From the IMG/VR virus record IMGVR_UViG_3300045974_001005, positions 1-57,366 of that record: a DNA stretch of 57,366 nucleotides; one strand, 5' to 3'. The position numbers were made by a program, and so were the translations under genes. Source of the stretch: a virus. Lineage: Duplodnaviria; Caudoviricetes. Positions 1 to 27,274 of this stretch are shown piece after piece. The notes beneath the pieces were generated by a model that worked only from the letters and a program-made list of their open reading frames with translations, had not been told where the DNA came from and made no database searches. Positions within the stretch are counted from its first letter, which is position 1. Every line of letters begins with the position of its first letter.

Positions 1-768
1 ATGTATTTTTTCATGCTTAAAAATCATAGTTGGCGGATACGCCTGCAAGCCGCTTTCGCAACCTGGCTGGGGCGTGCGTTACCCGCGCCAGCAAACAACC
101 TGCCACCAACCGTTTCACCCGCCACGCCCGTAGCGCCTGCAACCCCGCTACCCGTTGCTGCGCAAGCCAGCACATCCGCATCCATCACCCCAATCACATG
201 GTTCGCCGCGCTGTCACGCGATCTTTTGCCCGTGCTTTTCATCGACACAGCATCAGGCCAGCTTATTAAAATCAACGGCATGTCGCGCAAGCAGTTGGCG
301 GAATATCTGCGCTGCCCAATTTACACCGACCACACCACCCGCTGGACTTCGCTTGGCAATGAATTGCGCCGCGAAGGTTTCACGGTTGCCACGGCATTTC
401 AGGCGCAGGAAGATGCCTTGCTCGCCATGGAAGCGCTGGAAAGCGCAAGATGGTATGCCACTGCCCAACTGGCGCATCTGGACAACGAAATCCATCAAAC
501 CTTTGTGACGCTGATCGCACCGCTGATAGAACACGGCGATGATGCCACAGCCGTTACCCCACTGATGAGCAAAGCCGCGCTGGCCAACTTTGCGCAGTTG
601 CTGGTCTGCCGCAAAACCATGAGCGAGGAACTGGCCCGGATTGACGAAGAAGCCATCCCGACCCTGCAACGGATTGGCATGGCGCTACCTGCCGAAATGG
701 TGAGCGCCCTCACTGCCACCCGCAGCCAAGCGCCAGCTTACGCCCCCACCAGCGAGTGCGCAGCATGA
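1..768 (+). CDS. Hypothetical protein with Pro/Ala-rich N-terminal linker and C-terminal helical hairpin (start may be at 13)
   Basis: 255-aa ORF; its stop overlaps the next start (ATGA at 765-768). Confidence 0.7.
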   Translation: MYFFMLKNHSWRIRLQAAFATWLGRALPAPANNLPPTVSPATPVAPATPLPVAAQASTSASITPITWFAALSRDLLPVLFIDTASGQLIKINGMSRKQLAEYLRCPIYTDHTTRWTSLGNELRREGFTVATAFQAQEDALLAMEALESARWYATAQLAHLDNEIHQTFVTLIAPLIEHGDDATAVTPLMSKAALANFAQLLVCRKTMSEELARIDEEAIPTLQRIGMALPAEMVSALTATRSQAPAYAPTSECAA

Positions 769-1232
769 AGCCTGACATCCGCACCCGCACCGCGTACCCG
801 CCCCTGCGCACCCAATTTGCGCAACGGCTTTGGTGCCCCAGCCCCGGATGGACGCCATGCCACGCACTGCGCGCTGCACAAGTACGCCATGCAGGCGCAT
901 TGCAGCCAGTGCACACGCAGGATTGCCAACCGGATGGCCGCGCACTGGCCAAGCTGCGTGCGCTGACACGCACCCAACGCTATGCCCAAAATGAATTGGC
1001 CCAACTTGAAGCGGAATTGGCCGCGCTGCTGAAAACCATCGGCCCGCCACCGCAAGGCTTGGCTGCATGCGCAGCCTCCGCCACCACCGCAAAGGCCCGC
1101 GCCAAGCACCGCAGATTGAAGGGGTTGCAAATCGCCTGTCGGGATATCAGGGAAGAATTGGCATGGATTGATGCCGACCTGAAAGCCGCATGGGACGAGA
1201 TCGAAGCAAGCCAATCCGCCGCCCCGGCCTGA
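765..1232 (+). CDS. Hypothetical coiled-coil protein, apparent paralogue of the 1-768 C-terminus
   Basis: ATGA coupling at 765; segments RYAQNELAQLEAEL and CRDIREELAWIDAD resemble ORF1. Confidence 0.7.
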   Translation: MKPDIRTRTAYPPLRTQFAQRLWCPSPGWTPCHALRAAQVRHAGALQPVHTQDCQPDGRALAKLRALTRTQRYAQNELAQLEAELAALLKTIGPPPQGLAACAASATTAKARAKHRRLKGLQIACRDIREELAWIDADLKAAWDEIEASQSAAPA

Positions 1233-1287
1233 ACCGTTTTCCGTGTCGATCCTCAGTCGTAGCGGCATTCTGCCAAAGCAACTGTTC

Positions 1288-1335
1288 AGGGCGGGTGGGA
1301 AGGCTGATGTTGCCGTACCCGTTCGCCCTTTTTTT
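1288..1335 (+). terminator. Intrinsic terminator or attenuator upstream of the hsdM-like cluster
   Basis: Stem AGGGCGGGTGGG / CCCGTTCGCCCT (with G-U pairs) followed by a T-tract at 1329-1335. Confidence 0.7.
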
Positions 1336-1364
1336 ATTTCATTTTTCATGAAGCACAGCTACCC

Positions 1365-2636
1365 ATGATATCCACCTCACCGCTTACCGACCGCAGGCTG
1401 TTACCGCTGGAACAGGTGCGCTTGCGCATGCCACAATCATGGCAAACTCCCCTTGTCGCCGATGCCCTGCTGACCTTGCTGTTCTTCCGGCTCGTATCCT
1501 GCCATTGGACTGAGGAAGCCATGCGGTTTCAGGTCGCAGGCAAGGCGAGCGAAACGCTTTTGCAAGCCATGCTGGACAGCGGCCAATTCTTGATGAGTGC
1601 CAATGCGATGTTTGCGAACTGTCGGGCGGGCAACCCGGCGCACCTTGGTGCAGCGATTCAGGAAACCATGCAGACATGGATCAACTCGCAGGTGAGCGAT
1701 ACCGCGCATAAAAAGCTGGCCGCGATTCTCCGCCCGGAACGCTTTGGCAACCTGTTCGCCGATGCCAGTGAATTGGCCAAGGCGCTCGATCTGATCGACG
1801 CCATCACCATTGACCCTGCCACCCCTTCGCCGCAACTCGGTGCATTGTTTGCGCAGGCCATGCACTTGCTGGGCAGCGGCCCCGCGCCCGCCGTGCAGGA
1901 CGCCATGGTGCGGCTGGCGCAACTGGTGCAACCGCAAGCCAACGAGATCGTGTTTGATCCGGCTTGCGGCCAAGGCAACCTGTTGCAATCGTGCGCGGCA
2001 GCGCTGGCACTGCGTGCCCCCGCCAGCACGATGCACTTGTGCGGCATGCAAGCACTGCCAGACGATTGGGCACTGGCCTGCATGCTGCTGCACCTGTCCG
2101 GTCAGCACCATTTTTCGTTGACCCTTGGCGGGCCAACCCATACCCCGATTGCCGCGCAGATATTCCAGCAAGTGACGCCTGCCGATCTGGTGGTGACCAT
2201 GTTGGTACACAAGACACCCATGGCGCAAGCCGTGACCACCCTTCGCTATGCGCTGGCCTGCATGAAACCTGACACCGGGCGCATGGGCGTGCTGGTGCCG
2301 TTGTCCCTGCTGGCATCCATTGAGGGCAAGACCATCATCCGCTTGCTGCTGGAACAGGATTTTCTTGATGCCGCAGTTGGCCCGCTGACAGACGATGCGT
2401 CACCGCTGTTGATCCTGCTGCTACGCCAACAACGCACGCGTGTCCCGGTGGCTTTCATCAGCGCCGCCCCGGATGGCGATGCGGCAGACAATGCGGCAGC
2501 GGCGCTTGCAGCCTGGCAACAGGGGCAAAGCCATGCAGCCTTGCGCGAGCTTGACCCGCAGGCCATCGCAAATCGGCAGTACACACTTGTTGCCCACAAC
2601 GAAGGCCAATCCGGCGCTGACCGGGGTGGTGGGTAA
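1365..2636 (+). CDS. HsdM-like N6-adenine methyltransferase homologue 1, catalytic motif lost
   Basis: Motif I VFDPACGQGNLL; HsdM-type GRMGVLVP and FLDAAV segments; motif IV position reads ADLVVTMLVH rather than DxVxxNPPF. Confidence 0.8.
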   Translation: MISTSPLTDRRLLPLEQVRLRMPQSWQTPLVADALLTLLFFRLVSCHWTEEAMRFQVAGKASETLLQAMLDSGQFLMSANAMFANCRAGNPAHLGAAIQETMQTWINSQVSDTAHKKLAAILRPERFGNLFADASELAKALDLIDAITIDPATPSPQLGALFAQAMHLLGSGPAPAVQDAMVRLAQLVQPQANEIVFDPACGQGNLLQSCAAALALRAPASTMHLCGMQALPDDWALACMLLHLSGQHHFSLTLGGPTHTPIAAQIFQQVTPADLVVTMLVHKTPMAQAVTTLRYALACMKPDTGRMGVLVPLSLLASIEGKTIIRLLLEQDFLDAAVGPLTDDASPLLILLLRQQRTRVPVAFISAAPDGDAADNAAAALAAWQQGQSHAALRELDPQAIANRQYTLVAHNEGQSGADRGGG

Positions 2637-2857
2637 GTATCCATTTTGGCGGCAACGCCAATACCGAATCTGTTGCAAGTTGAGCCGACCATGACACGGT
2701 TCGATTTGTGGCAGATGTCTCCCGCGATGTTTGTCATTCATCGCGCTTCTTGGGCTGGTGTGTGCATTTAACCCCTGTTCACTCCAAGACGTGTGTTTCC
2801 CGCACCAGCCCTTGTTTTTAGCCAACCGAATTCAACCCGTTTTATTTTTCAAAGCGC

Positions 2858-4225
2858 ATGAACAACAATGCCGCACTCATGATCTACCGCGCCAAGGCGC
2901 TGATGCCCACCTCCATGGGCGCACACGAATGCGCAGACATGCTGGTGACCTTGTTATTTTGGAAGCTGGTTTCCGACTGGTGGCGCAGCGGCGCACCGCA
3001 CTGGTGGCAATCCTATTCCGGCAGAAACCCGGCCTGCGTCGCCATGGAACGGCAAAATGTCCTGCTGTGCGCTGACGCCGCCATTTACGAAGCCTGCCAG
3101 TGGCCGCATGGCGGCGAAACGAATGAAGCCATCGAGGCCGGCAAGGCAATTCGTGCATCGCTGTATGCCTTGGCACGGGCACAAACCAAACCCGCTGCGA
3201 TGATGGACATGTTGCGCCCGGAACGCTTTGGTGAATTGGGCGAGTTCGCCGCTTCATTCCGCTGCGCCAATACCTTGCCAAAGGTGATCGATATCATCGG
3301 TGGCATCAGCAACATCCCGCCCGAGCGAATGGGCAAGACCTTGATTGATCTGGTCGGCACGCTGGAAATGTACCCACCGTGGCCAACGGCCAGAAGCATC
3401 AGGCTGATGGCGAAGTTGCTCAATCCCTTGCGTGGTGAAACCGTGCTTGACCCGGCCTGCGGCAGCGGACAATTGTTGCTGGCCTTGGTGGCGGACATCG
3501 AAAGGCACGAGCGCGACCATGAACTGGTATTGCTTGGCCAAGAAAACCGCACCAGCCAATGGGCCATCACCAAAATGCAATTGCTGCTGCGGCCCCTGAT
3601 GCTGCATCGGGTGGACAAATCCGACGCGTTGGATTCGCCCTTGCTGGACAGCGCAACAGAGCAGTTGCAACAGGCCGACGTGGTGGTGCTGGCCGTCCCT
3701 GACGAAGCGCAGGAATGGAACCCGGCAAGCCATTCTCACGATGCGCGCTTCCCGCACGGCGTACCGGAAAGCGGCCGCATTGCCCTGATGTGGCATGCGC
3801 TGGCCTGCATGAAGGCGGACAGCGGGCGCTTGGGTCTGCTGGTGTCGGGCTCGCTCTTGGCCCTTGATGCCAGTTTGCCGCTGCGCCGCTATCTGGTGGA
3901 TAAGCAGTTGCTGGAAGCCATCATCCAGTTGCCGCGCATACGTCGCCAAACCGTGCAAAGCGCAGGGTGTTTGCTGCTGATTCGTCCGGCGCAAGCAACG
4001 ATTGCGCTCATCGGTAAGCCCTTGCCGCAAAGCGATGCGGACAAATCCAACTATTCCACCGACGACATCGAAGCGGCTTGGAACGACTTGCGCATGTGCC
4101 GTACTCACCCCTGCCTGCAAACGGTGTCGGGCGCAACCATTGCCGCGCAAGGCTACCCATTTGTTCCTCCTGCCATACCCGAACCTGCTGACCCTGCACC
4201 CCCTTGCCAGAAAGCCAAGCCATGA
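2858..4225 (+). CDS. HsdM-like N6-adenine methyltransferase homologue 2, catalytic motif lost
   Basis: LLFWKLVSD N-terminal motif, VLDPACGSGQLL, LLGQE, DARFPHGVP, LLEAIIQLP; motif IV position reads ADVVVLAVPD. Confidence 0.85.
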   Translation: MNNNAALMIYRAKALMPTSMGAHECADMLVTLLFWKLVSDWWRSGAPHWWQSYSGRNPACVAMERQNVLLCADAAIYEACQWPHGGETNEAIEAGKAIRASLYALARAQTKPAAMMDMLRPERFGELGEFAASFRCANTLPKVIDIIGGISNIPPERMGKTLIDLVGTLEMYPPWPTARSIRLMAKLLNPLRGETVLDPACGSGQLLLALVADIERHERDHELVLLGQENRTSQWAITKMQLLLRPLMLHRVDKSDALDSPLLDSATEQLQQADVVVLAVPDEAQEWNPASHSHDARFPHGVPESGRIALMWHALACMKADSGRLGLLVSGSLLALDASLPLRRYLVDKQLLEAIIQLPRIRRQTVQSAGCLLLIRPAQATIALIGKPLPQSDADKSNYSTDDIEAAWNDLRMCRTHPCLQTVSGATIAAQGYPFVPPAIPEPADPAPPCQKAKP

Positions 4226-5499
4226 CCTCTTTACTGTCCACCCTCGAATCCGCCCTCAGCCTGATGCCGCACGACGTTGCGGTTGGCACCCGTGCCAGCG
4301 TGTTGTTGCAATTGCTGTTGCTCAAGGCCCATTCTGACATTTGGCAACATCAGGTGACCCAGGCGGAAAAGGCAGGCACACCACTCTGCGCCTTCAACGC
4401 CAACCAAACCCAACGCAAGCAACTGTTGATGAACGACGCCTGCCTGTACGACAACTGCCTGTCCGCGCCACCCGAAGAGACGGGCAAGGCCATCCGCGAT
4501 GCCCTGCTTGCCTTTGTCACCTGTCAGGCGCACGGCGAACTCCATGGTGTATTCCAACCGGAACAGTTTTTGCGCCTTGATTCGCTATTGAGTCAGCATG
4601 GCAAAACCACGCATCTGGCCGACATGGTGCGGGCCTTGGGTGAATTGTCCTTTGCCGACATCCTGCCATCGCCTGATCTTGGGGAAGTCATTGCGCAGGC
4701 TTTCATAACGCTGGGCCTTGGCCCCGATCCGGCACAGTGCGAGGCCGCCCAATTGATGGTGCAATTATTAAAACTAAAAAACGGGCAACGGTTATTTGAT
4801 CCGGCGTGCAGTCAAGGTATGCTGCTGTATGCCGCCGCCAGCCATATGGCGCGCTTTGCCCCCGCCGAGGCAGTTGGCTTGTGTGGCATGACGGCAAACC
4901 GGAACGATTTTACGGTCGCCAGCATTTTGTTCATCCTGTGCGGCCAACCGCAAGCGCGCCTGCATCTGCGGGACTGCCTTGATGTCATGGCACAACAAAG
5001 CCCGCAATCTGATCTGGTGCAGGCCGACCGGGTTTTGACCATCATCCCCGATGCTGCCATTGCGTGGAACCATGCGCTGGCATTGCGCGATGCTGATCCG
5101 CGCTTTCCGGTACGGCCCCCGGCAGATAGCCGCGTGGCGCAGTTCTGGATTGCCTTGGCCAGTGTCAACCGCTCTGGACGCATGGCCGCATCGATTCCCG
5201 CACACCTGTTTGAGAGCGTGGACGGCAATGCCTTGCGCGCATATCTACTCAAGCACAACCTGCTGGAAGCGGTTATCGCATGGCCTGCGCCAGCCACGGA
5301 AGCAAGCCCTGTAATGAAAGGGCGCAATCTTGTTTTGCTGAATCGGCAAAACCCGCATGCCGGATCGGCTTGGATTGGCCCCGGATTGGGCAATCCGGCC
5401 AACGATAGCGGCGTACCTTATGACGCCAACAACGTTCTGTTGGCGTATGGCGCATGGCTACAGCAAAAACGCAATCCGCATTTGCTGGCCGGGTCATGA
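4222..5499 (+). CDS. HsdM-like N6-adenine methyltransferase homologue 3, catalytic motif lost
   Basis: ATGA coupling at 4222-4225; LFDPACSQGMLL, DPRFPVRPP, LLEAVIAWP; motif IV position reads ADRVLTIIPD. Confidence 0.8.
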   Translation: MTSLLSTLESALSLMPHDVAVGTRASVLLQLLLLKAHSDIWQHQVTQAEKAGTPLCAFNANQTQRKQLLMNDACLYDNCLSAPPEETGKAIRDALLAFVTCQAHGELHGVFQPEQFLRLDSLLSQHGKTTHLADMVRALGELSFADILPSPDLGEVIAQAFITLGLGPDPAQCEAAQLMVQLLKLKNGQRLFDPACSQGMLLYAAASHMARFAPAEAVGLCGMTANRNDFTVASILFILCGQPQARLHLRDCLDVMAQQSPQSDLVQADRVLTIIPDAAIAWNHALALRDADPRFPVRPPADSRVAQFWIALASVNRSGRMAASIPAHLFESVDGNALRAYLLKHNLLEAVIAWPAPATEASPVMKGRNLVLLNRQNPHAGSAWIGPGLGNPANDSGVPYDANNVLLAYGAWLQQKRNPHLLAGS

Positions 5500-5563
5500 T
5501 TGCGCCCGGTTCGTATTGCCAACTGGCTTGATCAACAAACCAAACCCCTACCGAAAGGAAACC

Positions 5564-5917
5564 ATGGAACTTTCAGATATGTCCCTCTCGCAATTGCGGG
5601 ACTTGCAAAACCAGTTGAGCGCCGAAATACAGCGGCGCAACCAAGCCGAAATTGAATGCGCCCGGCAACAGATTCTGGCCATTGCCGCCAGCGCAGGCAT
5701 GTCGCTTGCCGCTCTGCTTGCCATACCGAAACGGGCAGCATCACTAAAAGCCAAGTCCGTTCCCGTGCGCTACCGCCATCCGCACGATGCCACCCTGCAA
5801 TGGACTGGCCGTGGCCGTGCGCCCTTGTGGGTAGCCGAATGGGTCAACGAGCACGGCAACCGCGATGGACTGCGCATTGCCGACACCAATCAATCAGTGA
5901 ATGGAGGTCAAGCATGA
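5564..5917 (+). CDS. hns: H-NS family nucleoid-associated protein
   Basis: SD AAAGGA before ATG 5564; C-terminal RYRHP...QWTGRGRAPLW DNA-binding signature; N-terminal coiled coil. Confidence 0.93.
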   Translation: MELSDMSLSQLRDLQNQLSAEIQRRNQAEIECARQQILAIAASAGMSLAALLAIPKRAASLKAKSVPVRYRHPHDATLQWTGRGRAPLWVAEWVNEHGNRDGLRIADTNQSVNGGQA

Positions 5918-6507
5918 AAACAGAAGTCGAATTGCATCACCGCGCCGAATTACGTCAAGCCAGTGGCACGCCAATCGCTGGCGAAAAGAACCAAGGCTTG
6001 GTGGTGGTCTTCACGGGCAAGGGCAAAGGCAAGACCACTGCCGCCATCGGCATGGCATGGCGCATGATCGCTGCACAAAAACAGGTCGCGGTGCTGCAAT
6101 TTGTCAGCGCCATGGATAACAGCGCCGAATTGCAGACCTTGGGGCAAAACCCGCTGTGCACATTCAAAGTGTATGGCAGCGCTTGCCAATGGCAAGGCAC
6201 AAGCCACAAGGCGGATGTCGGCGCGGTCAATGCCATATGGCACGATGCAAAAAACCTGATGGCCAATCCGGCCATCAGCATGCTGATTCTGGACGACATC
6301 CTGCCCGTGATCGGCAACTCCTATTTGAATCTGGATGCATTGATACAGGCGTTGAAGAACCGCCGCCCCGATTTGCATGTGGTGCTCACCGGACGCAATG
6401 CCGTGTTTGAACTGACCGATTTTGCCGATCTGGTGACCGACATGCGCTGCATGAAACATCCGTACCCGGATAAAAAGATCGCGCCACAGCCAGGTATCGA
6501 GTTTTAA
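5914..6507 (+). CDS. cobO: ATP:corrinoid adenosyltransferase (CobA/CobO/BtuR family), atypical
   Basis: SD GGAGG and ATGA overlap with hns; GLVVVFTGKGKGKTTAA P-loop, HVVLTGR, ADLVTDM, KHPY, C-terminal GIEF. Confidence 0.88.
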   Translation: MKTEVELHHRAELRQASGTPIAGEKNQGLVVVFTGKGKGKTTAAIGMAWRMIAAQKQVAVLQFVSAMDNSAELQTLGQNPLCTFKVYGSACQWQGTSHKADVGAVNAIWHDAKNLMANPAISMLILDDILPVIGNSYLNLDALIQALKNRRPDLHVVLTGRNAVFELTDFADLVTDMRCMKHPYPDKKIAPQPGIEF

Positions 6508-6544
6508 AAACCTGCTGCCAACGGACAATGACAGGGGAAATGAC

Positions 6545-7702
6545 ATGACCGTTTTACATGTGCCACTGCTGGACGTGGTGCGCATCAATCCAGAGCCAGC
6601 CATGGATGGGCGAGTAGGCAAGGTGGCCTACATCAGCGCCGACCAGATCAAGCCCGATACGCTGGACGTACAAGCCGAAGTCCGGGCTGATATTGACCTG
6701 TCAGGCAAACCCGGCTGTTTTCAGGCAAACGATTTATTGCTGCCCGACCAATGGCGCAAACTGGCAGCGGGCGCGGTTTGCCAAGTTCATAGTGATCTGC
6801 CCCATGGCTACCATGACGGCGAGTTGCTGACACTGCGCGCCGATCCGCATCATTTGGACAATCGTCTTTTGTTGTACCTGTTACGCCAACCCGCGATGGC
6901 AGATCAAATCCGGGACTGGTATGCCAACCAGTCCAACAAAATAAGGAGGGTGGCGACATTTTTGCAGCAATTGCGCCTGCCGCTGCCACCGCTACGCACG
7001 CAAAGAGAGTGGCTGACGCAACTGAACCAGGCGTCAGAGCATTGCCAGCGGCAACAAGTGCAATGGCTGGCTTTGGATCAACGGCGTCGGCACCTGTTCA
7101 TGGATGTATTTGGCACAGCGGCACAGATGCAGCAACGGTGGCCTGCCGTGCCGCTGCCCAGCCTGCTGCATGGCTATCGGATGGGGGCGGAATCGACTTA
7201 TCGCGCCCTCTATCAAGGCCCGTTGATGATCCTGCCTGCCCACCTTGGTAGCCATCGTTTTAGCTGTGCCGATCCGGTTTTTCTGCACGAAGGGCGACCA
7301 CCACCCAGCAGCCTGCAAATATTCGCAGGGGACGTGCTGCTTGACACCGGCATCGGTACGGCGCATGCAACTGCGGTTCCCGCAGGGATACCAACCGCCT
7401 TTGCCGGGTCGGGCGTGGCCCTGATGCGGCCAAAACAGGTCGAGCCGGGTTTTCTGGCGGGCTACTTTTGCGCCGAGATCGCTGTCCAGGCGTTTGAAAA
7501 GCAAATCACGGATAAAAAACAGCAGGCGATCAAGCGTAGCAACCTGACGGCATTGTCGGTGCATTTGCCGCCTGCCGAATTGCAAAAGGTCTTTGTTGAA
7601 CAGAGCGCGGCCACTTTGCCCGAGATCGACGAAGCCGAGCGCCAATGGCGGCACGCCTGCAAACAGTTGGCGTTGCTGGCACGCCAGCTATTCGGCTCCT
7701 GA
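6545..7702 (+). CDS. Type I restriction-modification specificity subunit homologue (HsdS-like, diverged)
   Basis: Two TRD-like halves, each followed by a conserved-region motif (LPLPPLRTQ; HLPPAELQKVF); central FMDVFG...W linker; GDVLL. Confidence 0.8.
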   Translation: MTVLHVPLLDVVRINPEPAMDGRVGKVAYISADQIKPDTLDVQAEVRADIDLSGKPGCFQANDLLLPDQWRKLAAGAVCQVHSDLPHGYHDGELLTLRADPHHLDNRLLLYLLRQPAMADQIRDWYANQSNKIRRVATFLQQLRLPLPPLRTQREWLTQLNQASEHCQRQQVQWLALDQRRRHLFMDVFGTAAQMQQRWPAVPLPSLLHGYRMGAESTYRALYQGPLMILPAHLGSHRFSCADPVFLHEGRPPPSSLQIFAGDVLLDTGIGTAHATAVPAGIPTAFAGSGVALMRPKQVEPGFLAGYFCAEIAVQAFEKQITDKKQQAIKRSNLTALSVHLPPAELQKVFVEQSAATLPEIDEAERQWRHACKQLALLARQLFGS

Positions 7703-7766
7703 TTGGGTAATCCGTTTTTTTGCTTTCTGTCTTTTGCCCTTTTACTCTTTTTTATTGGAAATTACC

Positions 7767-8432
7767 ATGCGCGTTTCTTCGACCATTTTCCTGTTGACCT
7801 GTCTTTTGGCAAGCGCCATCCTTCCCGCGCACGCGGCAGAAAACGAAGTCAGGGTGCCCATCCCGGCCATCGGCCTGGGATCGCCCGCCGCCACCTTGGT
7901 CAAAATCATTTGGGATTCCACCAAACCCGCGCAAATTACCTTGAACCCCACGAACGCAAAACCCATGGCAGCGGCCAGCATGCCGCCCATGGTCGGCGAA
8001 TTGTTGCGCGTGGAGCCCAGCATACCGATAGCGGGCGCACGCGCCAGTTGGTTGGCTTTTGCCCAATCCGACATCAGTCTTTGCGCCGTCAAAGCCGATT
8101 CGCCCGATCTGGTTTGCGTGCGTCTGGCGGTGCCCAACCTTGGCGCAACCTGGGTCAGTGTCGAAGCGGATGCGCCAAGCGGGCATTTTGCCCTGCGTTA
8201 CCGCTTTCGCTACGACCAGCGCTTGAACGGCATGGTCATCCATACCCCCCTGCTGGGGACGGTCGCCATTGGCCTGGCACACGCGATTGCCGGGGCCAGC
8301 GCCGCAATGGGAGACTTTTTCGTGACGGGCAATCCCGATTCCATCGCCGTGACCGCTGATACCTGCATCGCCGGGGTGCGTGACGGCGTGGCGTGGGAAC
8401 GCGGTGAAGGGTGTAGTCCACTGCCAAAATGA
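7767..8432 (+). CDS. Secreted or periplasmic hypothetical protein
   Basis: Signal peptide MRVSSTIFLLTCLLASAILPAHA; paired cysteines. Confidence 0.7.
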   Translation: MRVSSTIFLLTCLLASAILPAHAAENEVRVPIPAIGLGSPAATLVKIIWDSTKPAQITLNPTNAKPMAAASMPPMVGELLRVEPSIPIAGARASWLAFAQSDISLCAVKADSPDLVCVRLAVPNLGATWVSVEADAPSGHFALRYRFRYDQRLNGMVIHTPLLGTVAIGLAHAIAGASAAMGDFFVTGNPDSIAVTADTCIAGVRDGVAWERGEGCSPLPK

Positions 8433-8614
8433 GCGCCTGATCAACTGCGCCACACTGTCCCCGCGTGCCCATTTTGAAAGGTACAGATACAAAAGTCACG
8501 ATGCAAGTGACTGTTTTTACGAAGCGGCACAGAGTGCATCATCAATGGGAGCGATTGGAAGCGCTTGTTTTGATATGCGATATTTACTTTAACTGTTATG
8601 CATGGAGCAGTCGT

Positions 8615-9055
8615 ATGAAATTGTTTAAAAATTCGTTATTGGGACTTGGTTTGATTGCAATGAGCCCGTTTTGCTTGGCGCAAACCCCGGTTACCGCCAA
8701 CATACAAGGGACGCAACAATGCGTCAAAGTATACGGGGCAAAAGTCACTTTGCCAGACGGCACCAATGCCCGCGTCAAAACACGCAATGGTGAAATGGCC
8801 ACCATCACCGTTACGCCGGATGGTCGGGGCATCGGCATCACGCCATCTACGTTGGATACCAAACCGGGCCTTGTCAGGCTGGAAATTTTCAATATCACCA
8901 CTGACGCAGACAAAAAGCCTGTTGCCGTACATGCTGCATTTGTGAAAGTGGCTGAACAGGGCGAAGCAACTTATGCGCAGGGTAACCTGAGCTTTAAAAT
9001 CGAAATGTTGCCCGCAGCGCCTGCGATCAGTGGTGACAAGCAATGCAAAATATGA
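8615..9055 (+). CDS. Secreted beta-rich hypothetical protein
   Basis: SD GGAG before ATG 8615; signal peptide MKLFKNSLLGLGLIAMSPFCLA; lower GC than flanks. Confidence 0.75.
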   Translation: MKLFKNSLLGLGLIAMSPFCLAQTPVTANIQGTQQCVKVYGAKVTLPDGTNARVKTRNGEMATITVTPDGRGIGITPSTLDTKPGLVRLEIFNITTDADKKPVAVHAAFVKVAEQGEATYAQGNLSFKIEMLPAAPAISGDKQCKI

Positions 9056-9092: not shown

Positions 9093-12000
9093 TCACTGCG
9101 CCAACTCCTTCCTCACCGCCAGCTTCAACGCCTTCGGCGCGGTGTGCTGCGTGCGCAAAATCACATCCTCCCGCATCGCCCGTACCCGCTTGGCCACACC
9201 CGGCATGTCAATTTTGATCGGAGTTTCCGGGTTTTTCCGATTCCAGTCATCGCGCCATGCCCTCGCTTCCCGCTGCATCGCCACATCCCCGCTGGCAATC
9301 CCTTGCGCCAAATGCTCGGCAATTTCGGTTGATCGCATCCGGGTTTGCGCAATCATGTTCAGTGCTTGCCCTTTTGCGTCCTGAATATTGGCCGTGCTGT
9401 TTGGCTGAAAACCGACCATTTTCATGATGCCTTCCAATGGCGTCACATCGTTGACCTTGTAGCCGCGTGCATCCTTGTACTGGCCGCTGGCCATCATGTC
9501 GGCCCCCTTGGCGAGGTTGCGCACCGATTGCGGCGATACATCAAGCGCCGCTCCCACCAGATCACCATCGAGCAACTTGCCAACACCGCTAAAGGCGCGT
9601 TTGGCAATGTCACCCGCAGGCCCAGCCAATTCGCCCAGGTCTTGGGTGTAAGACATTTTCTTGGTCAACAAACCCGTGGCCGGAATCAAATTGCCCATCC
9701 CCAGCCGTCCGGCTACGTCAATCGGCATGCCAGGCAAGCTGGATATGCCCTTGATGGCGAAGTCGGCACCGCTGCTTCCCAGCACGTCCGTGAAGAAGGC
9801 TTGCTTTTGGCGTTTGGTCGAAAAGTTGTAGCCCAGCCGTTGCAGCAGACCATCCATCAAGTCTTCCAGGTTCTTTTCAAACGGCAGGCCATCCATGCCC
9901 GACATCAGGAACAGCACCGCCAACATATATAAAGCGCCGCGTCGGCCCGCTGCCCGCTGCGGTGAACCGGGGCTACCTGCAAAGGCCATGCGGGACAGCA
10001 ATTCCACGTAGGCGATGCTGTACTGCTTGAACGTCATCAACAAGCCGCCCAAACTGGAGCGCGCCCAGCGCGGCTTGTTGCCGCTGTTGTACACGCCTTG
10101 CGTTTGTGCCACCGCTTGCCGTGCAAACCCTGCCGGGTTGGCGAAGCCTTCGGCCACGGCAGTGCGCCATGCGGCAATAAAGGTAATGCGCCGATTCGAT
10201 AGCTCGGCAATGGCAAACAATTTGCCCCAGCCCACCATAACCTTGGCAATGGCATTGTTCAACTGCGCCCGCGCATCGCCCAGCGCGGTGCCATCCCCCG
10301 ATTGTAACGCGCCGCGCCCCGCTGCCTGTGCTTGCAGGTAATGCACTTCTTGCGGTGCCACGATGCCTTCATCGCTGGCCCACTGCAAGGCCGCATCGAG
10401 TTTGGCATCCCCGGTTTCGTCTTTGCGCGCATCACGCACCGCTGTCATCAAGCGTTCGCTGGCCTTGGTGATCCCGCCAAACTGGCTCAGATAAGGCAAA
10501 GTCATGGTCAGCGGTTGGGTCAGGTTGACCATGGCGGATGCCACCGAGCCACCCAAAAACTGTGCAAACATCAAGCCGCCCAGCATGGTGCCGCCCGATT
10601 CCGGGTTGCGGATGTGTTCGCGCAATTGCATCGCGGCATCAATCAGTTGCCCTTGTTCCTTCGGTATGCTGGTGACGGCTTCATCAATTTCGCCCAGGTG
10701 GACATTGCCCGCCGTTAACCGTGCATTCGAGTACACGAACGACGCCAACACGCGTCCGGCGTCTTCAGAAAACCCGGCAATCCCCTTGCGCGTGATCATC
10801 CGCTTCAAGGCGCTGCGGTTGCTCTTGGCCAGTTGCAGGTATTTCTGGTAGACCTTGGTGCTGGCGGCATCGGTCTGAGTATCGAGCCCGACCATGCTGC
10901 CGAACAATTCAATCGTTTCCGGCGAAATGCCTGCAAACAGTTTATAAGCGTCTTCCGACAAAGTGCCTTGCGAAATCTCGGCGTCGGGATGGCTGGCGCG
11001 CATAGTGCGCGCCATTTTGGCCGCTTCCATCGCGGTTTCAAACAAGCCGAAATACAGTTGCTCGCCGTTTTCCTGCACATAGACGGCAAATCGGCCAAAG
11101 CGCGACAAGGGCGCATAGCCGCGTTGCATCAATTCCTGCGCACGTCCGGCCAGATTGGCGATGGTTTGCGCGGTTTGCAGGTGTCGCTTGGCGGGGCCAC
11201 TGTTGTCAGGCCCACCGCTGGCCTCAGCCAATTGCTGAAAGTGTTCCAACAACAAGGTGGTTGCCTCTTGCAAATTGGCGGTTTTCATCGCGGCGTCCAA
11301 CAGTGGCTTGGCATCCTTGCCGCCCATTTTCACCATTTCACTGATCGTTAAATTGGTCAGGCTCTTGTCAATGGCGGCGCGAAATTCCCGATACATGCCG
11401 ATTTGGGCCTCATTCAGGCGGAACAGGTCGCGCAGTTCGGCGTTTGTCCACACGATACCCGGCACCAGTTGCGAGTCGGCGAACTTTTTTTCTATCAAGG
11501 CGGTATAGCCCGCCTCGTTCATGCGCTGCCACACCCGGTTTTGCTCGGCATCGATGACTTGCTTTTGCATCAGGATATGGAGTTTTTCTTGCAGGCTCAA
11601 GCCTTCAGCCCGGCTTTCAAGCTCACTGATCTTGATCGCCTGACCATTGTCATCCCGCGTCCACAGCAAGGTGCCCTCAAAAATCGGCGCGGCAATGGCT
11701 TGGGTGTCCGCTGCCGTTAGCGGCTTTTTGCGCTTGCTGCCCAGGATGTCGCGCATGTTTTCCAATTTGGGCAGCAAGGTTGGTGCCTCATCTGCGGCCA
11801 CAACCGCATAGCGGGACACGTCGCCCAAAAAGCGCTGGATGGTGTGGTACACACGGGCAAAGGCGGGTTGGCGGCGCGCCAGATTGTCCATGGTGCCTAT
11901 CGTCTTGTGCCACCAGTTGAGTTTGCCGGACTGATTGAACAAATCGCCCACCACAAACCCGGCGGGCAATTGCAACTCTTGCACATTGTTGGCGGCATTG

Positions 12001-15000
12001 GCCAACGATTGGGACAATGAGTGCGCCAAGCCCCGGCTATACAGAATGTGTTCGGCCTGACCTATATTGGCGTGTAGCTCTGTGCCAATACGTCCCAATA
12101 GCGCTCGCCCATCTTCGCGGCTCTCGCTGCGTAAAACGGTACCTGTGATAGCTGCTCTTTTAATCGTTGCGCTTCCAATCGCCGCAGTCGTTGCAGTTCC
12201 TGATAACGCGGATCGTTGTCGTAGTCTGTCCGTAGCTCTTGCAGCCAGTTTTTGGAAGTCAATGTCTCCGAGCAATTCGCCCCGTTCTCCGGTAAAGTCG
12301 GCATATTCGGTGAGGTGGACATGGTTAATCTCTGGCAACAAGGAAGAAACATAATCATAAGATGCCTTGAGCATTTGCGCAAGATTGTGCTGATCCAGTC
12401 CCACCGCCCAGCTCAACCCTTTCATGCCTAGCCGCTTGGCAATCGGGCCTTTGGGATCGCGTTGCAATGCGTGTGGCCGGATATGATCGGTAGTGCCGAA
12501 TTTCATGGCGGTAGAAATCATGTTTTCCAGACGACGCATTTGCGCAACCTCGCTGAACCCGGCACTGTCGCCTTCCAATACCTTGCCGGTATTGAAGGCA
12601 TAATTGGCGACAGCGGCGTACAGCGCTGACCCACGCGAACTGCCCGATAGCAGGCGCGATGCATCGATTTGCAAGTCACGGCCAAATTCATAGACAAAGG
12701 CTTGCTTGCCATCTTCCATGGTGACCACCCATTGCTTGCTGGCCGTGGTGCGGGCTTTGGCATCGGTTTCCGGCAATGGCTGTACCTTGAACTTTGGCAT
12801 GATGTCATGCATCACGGCAATCAAATTGCGGGCGTGGGATACCGGATATTGATAGGCGTCTTCGTGCCCGGCGATGGTTTTCCAAAGGGATATCAGCCAG
12901 CTTGCTTGCTCGGCCTGGCTGAATGCAACGGCTGGTGTGACGCTTTGGGTCGCGCTTTGCTTTGTCCCCGTGTCAGATTGGGCCGGATGCTGCGCCGCCA
13001 GTTTTTGCGGTGCCCGTTGCAATGCGCGCTGCGCCGCATACACCAGATCATGCGCCGACATCATGCCCACCGCACGGAACCAGCGGGCACGCGCCAGCAG
13101 CGGCAAGCTTTGGCCAAGACTGCGGATGATGGAACGGAACCAGGCAATGACTTTTTGTGCAAACGATAATTCGGGGTTCGCTTCCAGGTAATACCCGAGA
13201 GCTTCTTCATTCATCGATTCCTTGCTGCTGCCCACCTGTTCGGCACGGGCGAACGCGGCTTGTACTTTGGGATTGCCGTTTTTCATGAGCGCAAAATAGT
13301 TCAGCAATTGCTTGAATTCGCGCGTGGCCCGTCCCAGGTGCAGCGCATGGTTGGCCAACTCGTGCAGCATCAAGCCATGCAAGGCGCTGCTACTGGCTTG
13401 CCTGCTGATCGCGTCGGCAATCAGATAGGTGACGCCATCTTGCGGATTGAAGAAGGCCACCGGCGCATAGGGTGCGGCTTGCGGCGCTTGGGCACCGTCG
13501 TCATGGCCTTGCAGCAGCGTTGACGCTTGATCGCTGTCGATCAGGCGCAGCTTGCCCGTTGCCAGCAAATTGCCAAGGAAGTCAGCACCGTAAGCATGCA
13601 GGCTCGATGACAGGGCCGGAATTAGCGATTGCACGGTGTGGGTAAGCCCAGCTTGGGCCAGCTCTGGCCGCGCCGCTTGCGACAATTTTGGACTTTCTTC
13701 AACGGCAGCATCGCCACTGTTGGCGGCGTCATCGATCAATGCCGCATGTTTGCCGGTCGATAGTTCGCTGATGACTTGATTCAAGCGCGCAAACTTGGTG
13801 TCAATCTGGTCTTGCTCGGGAAAACCGCTGCCTTTCTTGGCCAGCAGTTGCGGCAATTCATCATTGGCCTGCTGTAAGCGCGACTGCATCCATGTGATGG
13901 TGGATTCACCGCGCAATCTTTCCAAGTCTCGCAGCAAATAATCCAGTGCCCCGCGCATAATCGAGGTGTGGAAGTCGCCCGCGTCACGCTGTTCCATCCT
14001 GGTACTGGCCAAGGTGGAGCCGTCAAGGCGAAGCAAGCTCAAACTGGCGTAGTAAGCAAATTCGCCGCGCTCAATGCTGATGTCGAGCGGCAAACCCAAC
14101 AATTGCCCGACGATGACACTTTCTGACGCCTGCTTATTCAGGTTGGGAATTCGGGGCTTGATGTCTTCCCACATGGCGCGTGCGGCATCCGTGCGCCCGC
14201 CAAAGCGGCGCTGCCCGATCTCGCTGGCAAACGGGTTGGCATCACCCAAGGCATCGGAAATGGCACGCATTGCGCCATCGTCCGAAGTCAGGCGACGTTT
14301 TTCGACCGAAACAGAAAACTTGGCCTTGTCGTTGCCATTTTGCTGGCGCGCAATCGAGGCCAATACCGCTTGCTGGGCGGCATGGTGCTGGTCATATTCC
14401 ACACCTTCCACCACCACCCGGCGTGACTGCACATCGGCGAGCATGGCATTGAATCCGTTGAGAAGGGACAGTCTATCTTGTTCGGCCTGTTCAATTTGGC
14501 CAGGCAGGCGAGCAATATCGCGCTCGGCCTGTTCGATTTTGTCGGTCACGCCGCGTTGCTTGCGCAAATACTGGCGTTTTAACAGTTCCAGTTTGTCCAA
14601 TTCGCTCATCAACTTGACCCGCTCCAGCAACAGCGGATCACCCGACGCCAGCGCCGCCAATTCGGCCATGCTGACCGATTCCTCATCTTCAAATTCCATC
14701 ACGAAGGCACCGTCATATTTGCGGATGCCGTTGATGGTTTTGAGTTTGGCCGCGTTCAGGCTCCACATTTTGGCGTCAATGGTGCGTTCGGTGGCATAGG
14801 CCAGAATTTCGACTTCAAATTGGTCAACGCCATATTTTTCCAGCAAGCGATTGCCTTGCCGGATAATCCGGCCTTCGCGCTGTTCGATATCGCTGGGTTT
14901 CCAGGTCACATCGACATGATGCAAGGCCACCAGCCGTTGTTGTACATTGGTACCCGCACCCATGCGCGGGGTTGAGCCGATCAGGACGCGTACCGCGCCA

Positions 15001-18000
15001 TCGTTGACCGCATCAAACAGGGCTTGCTTTTGTTCGTCGGTATTGGCTTCCTGCACAAAACGGATTTCATGCGCGGGAATGCCTCGCGCCAGCAAATTGT
15101 CCTTAATCTGCTGGTAGGCATTCCAGCCGCCGTTCTGCGCATTGCGCAGCGCTTCAATTTCAATGGCATCAAAGGCATCAAGTTTGTCGCCAATGCGGCG
15201 CAAGGTGGATTCATCGGCATGTGCTTGCAATGCTCTGGTTTGTTCCTTGCGCAAGGCATCGTATTCGCGTATCAATGCGTTGTCGCCTTTGGATTTGGCG
15301 ACGGATCGATCCAGAAACACCAATTGCGTGCCCCGGTCGTCGTCCCACTTTTTGTAAATACGCGCCACTTCATCGGCCACTCTGTCGAGTTTGCCGCCTG
15401 TCTCAAGGCTGGGGTTGGTCGGTGCAACGGCGCGCACATCAAGCGACACCTTGCGCGCCCGATCCATCAATTTCAAGCGTTCCTTATTGCGTTCATAGGG
15501 GTCTTCGATTTCCGGCAGGCTGTCAAAGCCGTTGATGATGGCTCCCAATAGCTCAATCTGGGCGTCGGTCGGTTGAATGATCACCGATTGGCGGTCGCCA
15601 TGCATGACGCGGGGAATCGGGAAGGCGGCACCGTGATTGTCTTCCGCATAGGCGCGTTTGATGGCGTCGTTGTCCACCGAATCGGTAAAACTGTAATACA
15701 AGTCCATCAGCGAGCGCATGTTCGACCAGGTGCGGCCAAGGCGCACCACTTCGGCCAGGCGTCCGGTTTCATTCGGCTCCCATCCTGCATCCGCGCTCAC
15801 ATATTGGGCACGCCAGGCGTCAAAGTGCTCCAGCCCCAATTCTTTCAATTCATTCGCCGCCAGATAGCGCATCATGGTGTACATTTCCACCGCCGAATTG
15901 GAAATTGGCGTACCGGTCATGAACATCACGCCGCCCGTGGGCGATTCGCGCAGCACGCGCACCTTGTTATACAAGTCGAGTGCTTTTTGCGAACCGAGCT
16001 TGTTGTTCATGCCGCGCACGCCCGTCAATCGACTGGAATAAAACAGGTTCTTGAATTCGTGCGCTTCGTCAATCGTCAAGTGGTCGATGCCCAATTGTTC
16101 AAAGGTCAGCAATTTGTCTTTGCGGGTTTTGACCTTTTCCAGCCGATTCGTGATTTTTTCCACCAGCCGTTCGGCTTCCTTGACGCCAAACGGCTTGCGA
16201 AAGCCGGTGTGGCCATTGGCTTGGGCCTCGTCTTCGGCTTCTTTCACCGCATCCAGCGCCTGTTTCAGTTCAACCTGCAAAAACCGCTCTTCCGTTTCCG
16301 GGGCGATGCCAATAAACCCGAATGACGAATGGGCCATGATGATCAAGTCAAAATCACCCGTGGCAATTTTGGCAAACAGGCGACGCCTGCGCTCTTTTGA
16401 CATATCGTCTTTGCTGGCGGCCAAGACCTTGGCCCCCGGATATAGCCGATAAGCATCGGCAGTAAATTGCTCAATCATGTGGTTCGGTACCACAATCAAG
16501 GGCTTTTGCGACAGCCCCATGCGGCGGCGCTCCATCGCAATCGCAATCGAGGTATAGGTTTTACCCGCTCCTACCGCATGATCGAGCATCAAAAAGCGTT
16601 CATACACCCCACGCCAAATCGCGTTTTTTTGGTGGCGGCGCATTTTGGTGACGCTATCGGGCACTTTGCCGGGTAATACCAAGTGGGAACCATCGTATTG
16701 GCGGTTGACGCGGGTGTTGAACTTGTCGTTGAACAATTCCACCAATTGATTGCGCCGCTCGCTGTTGGCAAAGGCCCATTCTTCAAATTCCTTGGCGATG
16801 GCGCGCGCCTTGAGGTTGGCCAAATCGGTTTTTTCCCGATCCAGCACTGTCGCGCCATTCGATGCTTTGTAGGTGACGCTGATCGTGTCATTGTCCAATA
16901 ATGCTTCGATCAATTCAACCGAGGAATAGCCATCCGCGCTCCATTCATCTTCGTTGGCATTCACCCGCTTATTCTGATTGTCCAGAATCCGCACATGAAA
17001 TTGATTGCTCAGTTGCGAGAATGTCACTTTGGCCGCAACGCCGGAAATGTGAAAAATGAAATCCTCATAGGTGCGTGTCGGCACCCAGGTCGAACCGAGC
17101 AAGACCGTCACATCTTCGCTAGTCCACGGTTCAGGCTGTACCGTTTCCAAGGCCGCGATATTGGATTGCAACCCGGCAGCGCGAGCGGCATTCAATTTGC
17201 GCCGCACTTCTCCCGACAGGTAATCGTTGCGTGTTTCCCAGCGCTCGCTCTCGGGATCTTGAAAAATCAACGGTTTTTCTTGCTCCTGCACACGCTGCGC
17301 CAATTCGGGCTCGGTCATGCCCAGCAATTCGGCCAGGCGCGCCATATCGACCTTGCCTTGTTCGGCCAGGGTAATCGACAAGGCGTCGGCGAACGATTGC
17401 GCCGATGCCGGGGCAATATAGGGCACGATCACCCGGCGCGACAGGATCGGGGCCGGGTTGGCGCTGGATGGGCGGGCTTGATCACCGATTTTGGCGGCGC
17501 GTGCGCTTGAGATTGCCGGGCGATAGCCAAATTCCAGCGCCAGAATCAAGGCACCATCGGGCATATCGTTCAGCAGCGCGGCATTGGCCGGATCATTGAT
17601 CAAACCATGGTCGCTGGTAAATGCCCGGTATTGGCGGGCCAGGGACTGGCGATTTTGTTCCAACACGTCAGCAGGCGAGTTATCGGCTTCACGATTGAGT
17701 TGTTCCACCAACAAATCGCGTAACCCGACCAGCTTTTGCAAGCGTTCAAAGCGCGATTGGCCCAGCAATAGCGAGGCCGGGATGTCCGCTTCGGTCGCAT
17801 ACACCTTGCGCGCCACCACATTGCGGTTGATGGTCTTGTCGCCGCGCTTTTCCTTGACTGGCTTGCCATCATCGTCCAGCACCACCTCATTGCTATACCA
17901 GCGGCCAAGGGCATCCTGAAACAGCCTGTCAGACCATGGCGAGGCGGGCGAGAGAGTACGCTTGCTCAGTTCATGCCCGCCTTCCGGGGTTTCCCGTTCG

Positions 18001-26406: not shown

Positions 26407-26715
26407 TTATTCTCCTTCAATCAAAGTGTGGTCGATCTGATCCGGGTCAGTCAGATCGGTGGCGTGAATGCAAAACCAAACGCTGTCGGTCAGTGCTGTA
26501 ATGGTGTGGACGGCATGGGCCTTGATCGTGATGCAACTGCCTGCGGCAACGTGGCTGGTGACGCCATCGACTTCCACCAGCGCGTCACCCACGGCCAAAA
26601 TGCTCAGGTGGTCAAACGTGTGCTTGTGCGTTTGCGCAAAGTGGCCAGCGGGCAAATGCATTTGCTTGGCATAGACTTTGTTGCCGAAGTGATGTTGAAT
26701 GCGTAAATCAAGCAT
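26407..26715 (-). CDS. Cupin-domain protein
   Basis: HHF...VYAKQMHLPAG...HKHTFDH...H...WFCIHAT cupin metal-binding pattern. Confidence 0.85.
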   Translation of the reverse strand: MLDLRIQHHFGNKVYAKQMHLPAGHFAQTHKHTFDHLSILAVGDALVEVDGVTSHVAAGSCITIKAHAVHTITALTDSVWFCIHATDLTDPDQIDHTLIEGE

Positions 26716-27274
26716 GGGATGCGCCCTTGAACAAGTCGGTTTTGATGCAAACAATCAGGGCAAGGCGCTCTTGCCCGGAATCGTTGATGACGCCATGCTG
26801 AACCGCGTTGGTGAACCAGAAGCAATCACCGTCCTTGGCGGTCAAGTCGCCTTGTGGAAACCGGAAGAGTGCACCAGGCGGGTTTTGGATGGCGATGGTG
26901 AATTTTTCGTAATAGGCGGCATGCCAACCCCGGTCGATGTGGGGATAGACTTTGCCGCCAGGGGGCAGTTTGGTAATCAGGATGCCGCCCAGGCGTTCGC
27001 CTTGAACATAGCGCATCAGGTCAAACACCAGGCCATGCAGTTCCGGCAGCGCATGCCAGGCCGGATACCAGACGGAATCATGGGCATCGGCGAAATGGGG
27101 GCCGATGTTTTGCGGGGCATTGTAGCGAAGCCAAATATCGGACACTTCCCGGTGGGGCGAGTCGGGCGACGTGGTGCGCTGTGGGTGTTGCCCGAATAAT
27201 TCAGGCTGGCGGGCGAGTGCTGCCCGGAGTGGTGCAACGTCGATGTGCTGCGCAATGTGCAAAAAGTCGGGCAT
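26708..27274 (-). CDS. Aspartyl/asparaginyl beta-hydroxylase-like 2OG-Fe(II) oxygenase
   Basis: SD AGGAG; LPPGGKVYPHID (HxD), GDCFWF, HGVIN, terminal RLALIVC. Confidence 0.85.
   Translation of the reverse strand: MPDFLHIAQHIDVAPLRAALARQPELFGQHPQRTTSPDSPHREVSDIWLRYNAPQNIGPHFADAHDSVWYPAWHALPELHGLVFDLMRYVQGERLGGILITKLPPGGKVYPHIDRGWHAAYYEKFTIAIQNPPGALFRFPQGDLTAKDGDCFWFTNAVQHGVINDSGQERLALIVCIKTDLFKGASHA

Follow-up and report, generated by a model that had tools for sequence, protein, structure and literature searches.

The window, by which we mean the whole stretch of DNA that was analysed, is an entire IMG/VR provirus record (IMGVR_UViG_3300045974_001005; 57,366 bp) whose host is a freshwater Burkholderiaceae bacterium. 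A Pfam scan of the open reading frames (ORFs) of the window identified structural genes of the SU10 type (portal, adaptor, and capsid). A tyrosine integrase lies at the right end (56062–57366, minus strand), and at the opposite end ten plus-strand genes run head to tail from position 1 to 9055, from up255 through sec2. Three of them encode proteins derived from HsdM, the M subunit of type I restriction-modification (R-M) systems (M1, M2, and M3; hereafter M-like proteins), and these are the main subject here. The genes of this module and its large neighbour are as follows, with lengths in amino acids (aa).

1–768, plus strand: up255, leader gene, 255 aa, helical, of no known family
765–1232, plus strand: orf155, coiled-coil protein, translationally coupled to up255
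1365–2636, plus strand: M1, putative HsdM-derived pseudo-methyltransferase, 423 aa (Pfam N6_Mtase, E = 1.2e-5)
2858–4225, plus strand: M2, putative HsdM-derived pseudo-methyltransferase, 455 aa (N6_Mtase, 2.3e-24), of clade A
4222–5499, plus strand: M3, putative HsdM-derived pseudo-methyltransferase, 425 aa (N6_Mtase, 5.8e-11)
5564–5917, plus strand: H-NS-like protein, 117 aa (PF00816, 3.6e-10)
5914–6507, plus strand: CobO-like protein, a P-loop protein of the CobA/CobO family, 197 aa (PF02572, 4.9e-46)
6545–7702, plus strand: HsdS-like protein with two target recognition domains (TRDs), 385 aa (PADLOC Specificity_I, 8.1e-21)
7767–8432, plus strand: sec1, protein with an N-terminal signal-peptide-like sequence
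8615–9055, plus strand: sec2, second protein with a signal-peptide-like N-terminus
9093–23909, minus strand: giant polyvalent protein, 4938 aa, with LPD37 and SNF2/ResIII/Helicase_C, convergent with the module

An initial annotation of this DNA, made from the sequence, had described six intact, co-directional genes at 1365–7702 with ATGA overlaps at two junctions. All six ORFs are indeed intact and on the plus strand, and stop and start codons overlap at 4222–4225 (M2/M3) and 5914–5917 (H-NS-like/CobO-like), with a third such junction at 765–768 (up255/orf155). The proposed boundaries did not hold, as the operon is longer at both ends, with two genes upstream (1–768 and 765–1232) and two signal-peptide genes downstream, and the conserved partners upstream of the reported start had gone unmentioned. 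The left edge of the record is the start of up255, so that the unit begins at or before base 1. The start of M3 is the ATG at 4222, an alternative TTG at 4204 being less likely. A scan for promoters and terminators found sites no commoner than in shuffled sequences (5 vs. 4.3, and 14 vs. 11.9). In agreement with the earlier statement that hsdR is missing, TIGR00348 gave 0 matches within the provirus record, outside of which the host flank lies, and the sole ResIII match in the record is inside the 4938-aa ORF.

All three M-like proteins keep motif I (DPACGQG in M1, DPACGSG in M2, and DPACSQG in M3) and have lost motif IV, which reads TMLVH in M1, LAVPD in M2, and TIIPD in M3. M2 keeps motif II (LLGQE), the acid of which is lost from M1 (LCGMQAL), and has YPPWPTA in place of GEFYTP (motif X). 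Orthologues of M3 at 88%, 37%, and 39% identity retain 'LTIIPD..W.HALALR..DPRFPVRPP.DSRVA' around the replaced motif IV. A phmmer search with M2 against 1.84 billion representative sequences gave 1635 hits at ≤1e-3 and 20 at ≤1e-30; the best ~35 relatives align over their full length (417–471 aa), and canonical HsdM proteins align to M2 residues 180–378 only. Motif residues were then counted in one alignment of 35 family members and 16 canonical HsdM proteins bearing NPPF/Y. The family retains motif I (D in 32/35, P in 30/35, C in 32/35, and the two G in 29/35 and 32/35), motif II (G in 34/35, E in 23/35 plus D in 3/35), and the D of motif III (32 of the 35). Motif IV is gone, with N, the first P, and F/Y each found in 0/35, and all 16 canonical proteins in the same alignment retain these motif residues. 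The replacement has the form hydrophobic-hydrophobic-P-(D/E/H), with P in 29/35 and D or E in 21/35, and of GEFYTP the T and P remain in 4 and 11 of the 35 members, respectively. Outside the family, several longer HsdM-like proteins (among P0035–P0070, ~480–520 aa) carry HPPF, EPPF, APPF, QPPS, DLPF, or SLPF at motif IV, so that partial degeneration of HsdM may extend beyond the M-like family.

Differences from canonical HsdM are also found in domain layout. Compared with canonical HsdM of Burkholderiaceae (508 and 512 aa), the family lacks a segment of ~13 residues around GEFYTP, and the canonical tail of ~40 aa, a coiled coil, extends past the end of 7/7 M-like proteins aligned; 26 of the 27 members of the family alignment (A2) are ≤471 aa long. 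The HsdM N-terminal domain is retained. A confident AlphaFold2 model of M2 (predicted local distance difference test score, pLDDT, 89.6; predicted template-modelling score, pTM, 0.90) has its best PDB matches in PacII M1/M2 and other HsdM chains, with template-modelling scores (TM) of ~0.7 (PacII ~0.71). A fold search with M2 in BFVD found no close viral analogue (TMq ≤0.60, all of them larger M or M-S proteins). In the PacII study, the HsdM tail forms a four-helix bundle with the conserved regions of HsdS, and its deletion abolishes M-S assembly (PMC9613975). For M.EcoKI, it is reported that the HsdM C-terminal domain contacts the HsdS coiled coil, that the N-terminal domain is the M-M interface, and that surface r− mutations suggest a contact of this domain with HsdR (PMC2647291).

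From these comparisons, we regard the three M-like proteins as a distinct HsdM-derived family and not as recent wrecks. They are predicted to be unable to methylate DNA in the known way because GEFYTP and NPPF, by which the target base is held and activated, are lost, and to be unable to dock on HsdS or enter the M2S core in the known way because the C-terminal tail that ties HsdM to HsdS is lost. Two statements of the initial annotation, that the HsdM proteins are catalytically dead and that this is not a working R-M system, fit well with these results, as NPPF/Y is absent from all three window proteins and from the whole family, motif X is gone from all three as well, and the record holds no hsdR.

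In a FastTree phylogeny rooted on canonical HsdM, the M-like family groups on one long branch away from the canonical proteins. Within it, clade A (support 0.93) comprises M2, L004_b, L051_mid, the third L051 gene, L049, and L050. M1, M3, and the first M-like gene of L002, L003, L004, L052, and L051 fall outside clade A. Each of the three loci with at least two M-like genes (window, L004, and L051) has at least one inside clade A and at least one outside it, and this joint retention of paralogues from two old lineages suggests that they form a hetero-oligomer. Selection on the family also appears to have been maintained. ORFs of 400–460 aa are open at 30–40% identity in L002, L003, L004 (two genes), L049, L050, L051, and L052. 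Ratios of nonsynonymous to synonymous substitution rates (dN/dS; Nei-Gojobori) come from copies in G002, a single metagenome-assembled genome, and are small samples from relatives that do not include the window's own genes: 0.075 for L052 vs. L014 and 0.096 for L052 vs. L051 (68 codons each), 0.35 for L014 vs. L051 (143 codons), and 0.29 for L052 vs. L003 (364 codons, dS saturated). The M-like family thus appears to be under purifying selection and not decaying, in line with the earlier idea of a retained set of genes, for which a dN/dS check had been proposed.

Metagenome contigs provide a view of natural variation in the operon. Contigs from pond and riverine samples cover it at 85–100% identity, and a riverine contig of 1880 nt spans the CobO end, HsdS, and sec1 at ~93%. 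Among 12 of 95 indel rows that were seen, there is one 1-nt deletion variant in M1, at 2437, and the other indels in coding regions preserve the frame (+6, −3, and a −1/+1 pair 5 nt apart). One riverine contig (run X3) joins 1063 to 2643 and skips 1579 bases, by which M1 would be removed, and this suggests that M-like copy number varies between natural variants. A contig in run X1 skips 2906–3678 inside M2, with 17 other letters in between.

The initial annotation had proposed a search for related clusters, and such clusters were found in a metagenome contig (L004) and in two genomes (G001 and G002). L004, a contig of 4.3 kb, carries an up255-like gene, an M3-like and an M2-like gene, a CobO-like gene, and then a signal-peptide protein, with neither H-NS nor HsdS. 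In G002, three tandem M-like genes occur in L051, M-like is followed by CobO-like in L014, CobO-like by sec1-like in L017, and up255-like by M-like in L003 and L052. Between the first and second M-like genes of L051 there is a 112-aa ORF (2229–2567, minus strand) of no known family and with no counterpart in the window. Further upstream in L003 are host GGDEF/EAL, response-regulator, and histidine-kinase genes, and no hsdR. L013, in G001, has a leader-domain gene, a CobO-like gene, and then a 196-aa protein, with no M-like gene; the 196-aa protein looks by eye like half an HsdS and has no family match, and these three genes converge on a giant ORF that shares 35% identity with that of the window over 858 aa. 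In addition, L049 and L050 are single intact M-like genes among host-type genes. Judged from gene order in these loci, the recurrent partners of M-like genes are up255 and the CobO-like gene, and H-NS and HsdS are optional.

The leader up255 gave no match in Pfam, NCBIfam, PADLOC, or PHROG, and a fold search of the ESM Atlas gave nothing usable (TM ≤0.38). Its conservation is seen in its position: homologues lie directly 5′ of the first M-like gene in L003 (34% identity), L004 (39%), L052 (24%), L049 (a short form), and L002 (20%), and a leader of this type precedes the first M-like gene in 6/7 loci where the region is visible, the exception being L050. In L013, the gene that precedes CobO has an N-terminus resembling the C-terminal domain of up255 (hhalign 97%, E = 4e-11).

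The CobO-like protein is the most constant partner of the module (window, L004, L013, L014, and L017). It matches PF02572 over its full length (157.5 bits vs. a cut-off of 25.7) and Salmonella CobA at 1.4e-30, and falls below the NCBIfam cut-offs (168.1 vs. 185, and 150 vs. 167.75 for TIGR00708). The P-loop GKGKGKTT is present, and residues invariant across 107 canonical sequences are kept (D127, T159-G-R161, D172, T175, Q192, G194, and E196). In a maximum-likelihood tree, a 21-row clade (100/100) unites the window protein with other module-linked proteins and with the host-type CobO of G001 and G002, the genes of which adjoin a histidine kinase. The TIGR00708 equivalog threshold is reached by 0/7 module-linked proteins (150–164.5 bits) and by both host-type proteins (168 and 169), and terminal branches are 0.15–0.51 long for the module-linked and 0.014–0.02 for the host-type proteins. 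The CobO-like protein is apparently a diverged but intact ATP-binding copy of the host CobO enzyme. The description of it as atypical holds as regards divergence, and needs tempering in that the protein is only modestly atypical, with every family-invariant residue kept. The window protein has C at a site that we take to be F91 of Salmonella CobA. As a mark of a defect, this C was ruled out, because it also occurs in host-type CobO from the same genus. One distant viral CobO-like locus (L018) was also seen, at 32% identity.

The HsdS-like protein aligns through residues 24–375 with positions 23–371 of the 387 of the PADLOC Specificity_I profile, and its match to Pfam Methylase_S is only 1.4e-4. 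It belongs to a small family with relatives at 89%, 44%, 43%, and 30% identity, TRDs included in the alignment, among which the central and C-terminal helical stretches are conserved (alignment A7). A recent capture of a host HsdS was considered and ruled out, as the close relatives are four metagenomic proteins only and ordinary HsdS is ~25% identical. The 44% relative (P0277, 427 aa) holds in its N-terminus remnants of a CobO-like start and P-loop, as if a deletion had joined what was left of a CobO gene to an HsdS-like gene. These remnants confirm that CobO and HsdS adjoin each other elsewhere too and show that CobO can be lost. The H-NS-like protein has a PF00816 C-terminal domain (39.9 bits vs. 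a cut-off of 25.6) and scores 16.9 vs. 211 against the NCBIfam H-NS equivalog, which makes it a distant family member. H-NS-like is absent at the equivalent place in L004, and HsdS-like is missing between CobO and sec1 in L004 and L017. Both genes had been counted as parts of the system, and both are present in the window, but the corresponding place in L004 and L017 lacks them, for which reason we treat them as optional, non-core parts.

For orf155, the sole match is a sub-threshold Acb2/Tad1 hairpin (E = 0.026; 15.2 bits vs. a cut-off of 27), which we take as a lead only. The Acb2/Tad1 hairpin domain belongs to anti-defence sponges. At the downstream end, sec1 has the hydrophobic N-terminus MRVSSTIFLLTCLLASAILPAHA; a homologue lies directly after CobO in L017 (tblastn, 1e-6), and the ORF after CobO in L004 resembles sec1 (by eye only). 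The N-terminus of sec2 is MKLFKNSLLGLGLIAMSPFCLAQ, and this protein has no family match.

Among 401 sampled Burkholderiaceae genomes, full-length matches to the profile of the NPPF-less family at >330 bits were found in three (G001, G002, and G053), which are all three species of one genus. The next tier, at ~230–246 bits, consists of canonical hsdM-hsdS-hsdR loci of Burkholderiaceae, and in an order-level sample 1/401 genomes matched, namely G001 itself. Each of the three genomes of the host genus has 2–4 hsdR genes above the cut-off. We consider the cluster to be a conserved accessory module of temperate SU10-like phages in one freshwater Burkholderiaceae genus, as judged from these profile matches and loci, and the single-genus distribution among sampled genomes limits generality.

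Convergent with the module, the 4938-aa ORF contains LPD37 (8.9e-57) and a SNF2/ResIII/Helicase_C core, and Pfam shows no methyltransferase domain in it. The part shared with the giant ORF of L013, where the latter converges on CobO and the half-HsdS, is the C-terminal 858 aa. Polyvalent proteins of this kind occur in phages and conjugative elements. Elsewhere in the prophage, a PAPS-reductase-domain protein (6.1e-25) adjoins a DUF1376 protein (5.4e-28) at 51200–53118 on the minus strand. An AT-rich island at 26700–31000 (GC content 0.41–0.49 vs. ~0.57 elsewhere) holds a DUF2026 protein (27512–28282, 2.2e-44), adjoins an Asp/Arg-hydroxylase-like ORF (26708–27322), and may be a more recent insertion within the prophage. 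A second low-GC patch (0.443) at 45000–46000, between the portal gene and a 517-aa ORF, holds an opposite-strand DUF4760 ORF (45424–46002).

The M-like proteins probably act by binding and not by catalysis. We favour, tentatively, the reading that the M-like module counters host type I restriction as a decoy, with no catalysis involved. Having kept the HsdM N-terminal domain and the adenosine-binding half of the Rossmann fold (motifs I–III), the decoys would capture the partners of genuine HsdM, namely host HsdR and/or the N-terminal domain of host HsdM, possibly as a hetero-oligomer of paralogues from both lineages. Together with the giant polyvalent neighbour, such capture would weaken type I restriction, which is abundant in the host genus. 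Subunit mimicry is suggested because what is retained makes contact with other HsdM subunits and, if the genetic evidence is followed, with HsdR; because the lost tail otherwise builds DNA-bound complexes; because type I systems of the parent family abound in the hosts; and because the giant polyvalent protein neighbours the module in two loci (window and L013). The initial annotation had imagined decoy subunits that assemble into host R2M2S1 complexes, and had suggested modelling of M-M-S complexes. The non-catalytic decoy is the part of this idea that we favour, while insertion into R2M2S1 is weakened, given that the whole family is without the ~40-residue C-terminal tail that binds HsdS.

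Several points weigh against a decoy function. The position of the module is cargo-like, opposite the integrase and beside H-NS-like and secreted-protein genes. Such a prophage end is typical for cargo or defence genes expressed in lysogeny, not for early anti-restriction genes. Solitary intact M-like genes among host-type genes (L049 and L050) are unexplained by a purely offensive phage function, and the M-less variant in L013 implies that M-like proteins are dispensable to the module. The model also assigns no role to the CobO-like protein. In the tree, branching outside clade A is poorly supported (0.19–0.27). Finally, the contact of the HsdM N-terminal domain with HsdR is a suggestion from mutant phenotypes, with no solved interface in the texts covered.

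Some of the same points serve better the main rival, rather unlikely in our estimate, in which M-like proteins, with or without HsdS-like, would be a prophage-borne guard expressed in lysogeny to protect the lysogen. They would lure or sense the proteins of infecting phages, much as Ronin uses HsdMS, and the effector would be a secreted protein, orf155, or the CobO-like enzyme, which uses ATP. The cargo end of the prophage with its H-NS-like and signal-peptide genes, the gene content that, as in defence hotspots, differs from locus to locus while the flanks are conserved, and the solitary intact copies in L049 and L050 all fit with this, and there is a precedent, as the preprint on Ronin describes hsdM and hsdS without hsdR as a decoy immunity that works without methyltransferase catalysis, shown with an F287G mutant (bioRxiv 10.1101/2023.04.06.535777). 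Yet Ocr-type DNA mimics bind the DNA clamp of an assembled M2S (PMC2647291), and the M-like family is without the assembly tail; HsdS-like is absent at its place in L004 and L017; the 2636–2858 gap shows no small membrane ORF like RonA (ORFs ≥20 aa, by eye, no homology search); and PADLOC returned generic MTase_I and Specificity_I matches only. The CobO-like protein is central to a third reading, which we hold doubtful and place behind the guard, that it makes adenosylcobalamin for auxiliary metabolism or as a signal, and that M-like proteins bind an adenosyl ligand (S-adenosylmethionine, S-adenosylhomocysteine, or adenosylcobalamin) as regulators or buffers, possibly with H-NS. Its origin in the host-type CobO clade (100/100), its retained P-loop and other family-invariant residues, and its constancy as a partner speak for this, as does the conservation of the adenosine-binding motifs I–III where the methionine and target-base motifs were lost. 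Against it, no B12-dependent enzyme was found among the window ORFs scanned with Pfam, the sub-threshold scores of all seven module-linked CobO proteins and their long branches suggest a relaxed or altered function, CobO is reduced to a remnant fused to HsdS-like in P0277, and ligand binding by M-like proteins is predicted from motifs only. An improbable combination of these ideas is a ligand-gated conflict module, in which the CobO-like protein would make or consume an adenosyl molecule read by the M-like hetero-oligomer, and the ligand state may decide between neutralising type I restriction and triggering a defence response.

Two further explanations are very improbable. If the genes were neutral hsdM-hsdS remnants of a decaying or cryptic type I R-M system, with hsdR possibly just outside the record, then the lost catalytic motifs, the missing hsdR, the unseen flank beyond the left edge at the up255 start, and the 1-nt deletion variant in M1 would be accounted for; this has nonetheless been largely refuted, as the same three losses are common to 35 family members on a long branch apart from canonical HsdM, ORFs are intact across 30–40% identity with dN/dS of 0.08–0.35, the other coding-region indels among the rows listed preserve the frame, and the genes upstream in L003 are host signalling genes. 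It is just as hard to credit that the proteins form an unconventional working DNA methyltransferase, with the replacement motif catalytic and HsdS-like directing it. Motifs I–III and the replacement motif are conserved, and an HsdS-like partner is present in the window, but a polar residue at the N/D/S position of motif IV is found in 0/35 members, the base-stacking aromatic residue is likewise found in 0/35, and GEFYTP and the HsdS-binding tail are lost.

Among known systems, Ronin (hsdM, hsdS, and ronA) resembles the module in that type I M and S homologues occur without hsdR, in the window only, and in that both would work without methyltransferase catalysis within anti-restriction conflict (bioRxiv 10.1101/2023.04.06.535777). 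HsdM of Ronin retains NPPF and forms HsdMS, whereas the window M-like proteins lack motif IV, motif X, and the tail that binds HsdS. As effector, Ronin has a membrane protein of 61 aa, and the system is chromosomal in E. coli, whereas the window module is prophage-borne with no RonA-like gene seen (by eye, in the 2636–2858 gap). The module further differs in having up to three M paralogues, an optional HsdS-like gene, and the constant partners up255 and CobO-like. The closest solved structures by sequence (E = 3e-17) and fold are PacII M1M2S (PMC9613975; PDB 7vru, 7vs4), which likewise has distinct M paralogues encoded side by side; its M1 and M2 carry NPPF/NPPY, methylate A and C, and bind S via C-terminal tails, all of which are lacking in the window M-like proteins. 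The nearest canonical relatives are Burkholderiaceae type I R-M systems (L053–L055; hsdM with 'NPPFSLE', hsdS, and hsdR near glmS), at the ~230–246 bits mentioned above, whose N-terminal and catalytic HsdM domains are homologous to M-like proteins; these systems have NPPF, GEFYTP, the C-terminal tail, and an HsdR of ~1100 aa, and the M-like module is without them. The CobO-like protein shares PF02572 over its full length and the P-loop with CobA/CobO/BtuR adenosyltransferases (Salmonella CobA; PDB 1g5r, 4hut), but its gene is part of a prophage accessory module and not of a cob operon, its scores miss the equivalog cut-offs, and its branch is long. The window giant protein, in which Pfam finds LPD37 and SNF2 but no methyltransferase domain, may also be set beside DarB of P1. 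In description, the likeness to P1 Dar/DarB is that of a huge helicase-containing temperate-phage protein beside accessory genes, with type I restriction as the presumed target.

Searches of full-text articles found neither HsdM-like proteins without motif IV nor a homologue of CobO that belongs to a phage accessory module or one resembling R-M, and we know of no defence or anti-defence catalogue that lists a CobA-family enzyme. The assertion that no described system has this gene combination therefore stands within the same full-text scope. The decoy idea is less new, since the non-catalytic use of R-M subunits already has a precedent in Ronin.

Reuse of type I R-M subunits beyond modification has only recently been recognised, with Ronin as an example. 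The M-like family would go beyond Ronin, in that catalysis and the HsdS anchor appear to be shed while the surfaces that contact R-M subunits are kept under apparent purifying selection. If the decoy reading is true, it would represent a new protein-mimic route of anti-restriction, by subunit mimicry instead of DNA mimicry, and a handle for easier transformation of environmental bacteria rich in type I systems. If a defence role is true, it would be a new guard architecture, and a ligand-gated module would be both the first case of a methyltransferase-fold pseudoenzyme family put to use as a ligand-gated sensor or decoy and the first involvement of a CobA-family enzyme in conflict. Whether decoy or guard, the label "type I methyltransferase subunit M" can hide pseudoenzymes, which is a warning for annotation.

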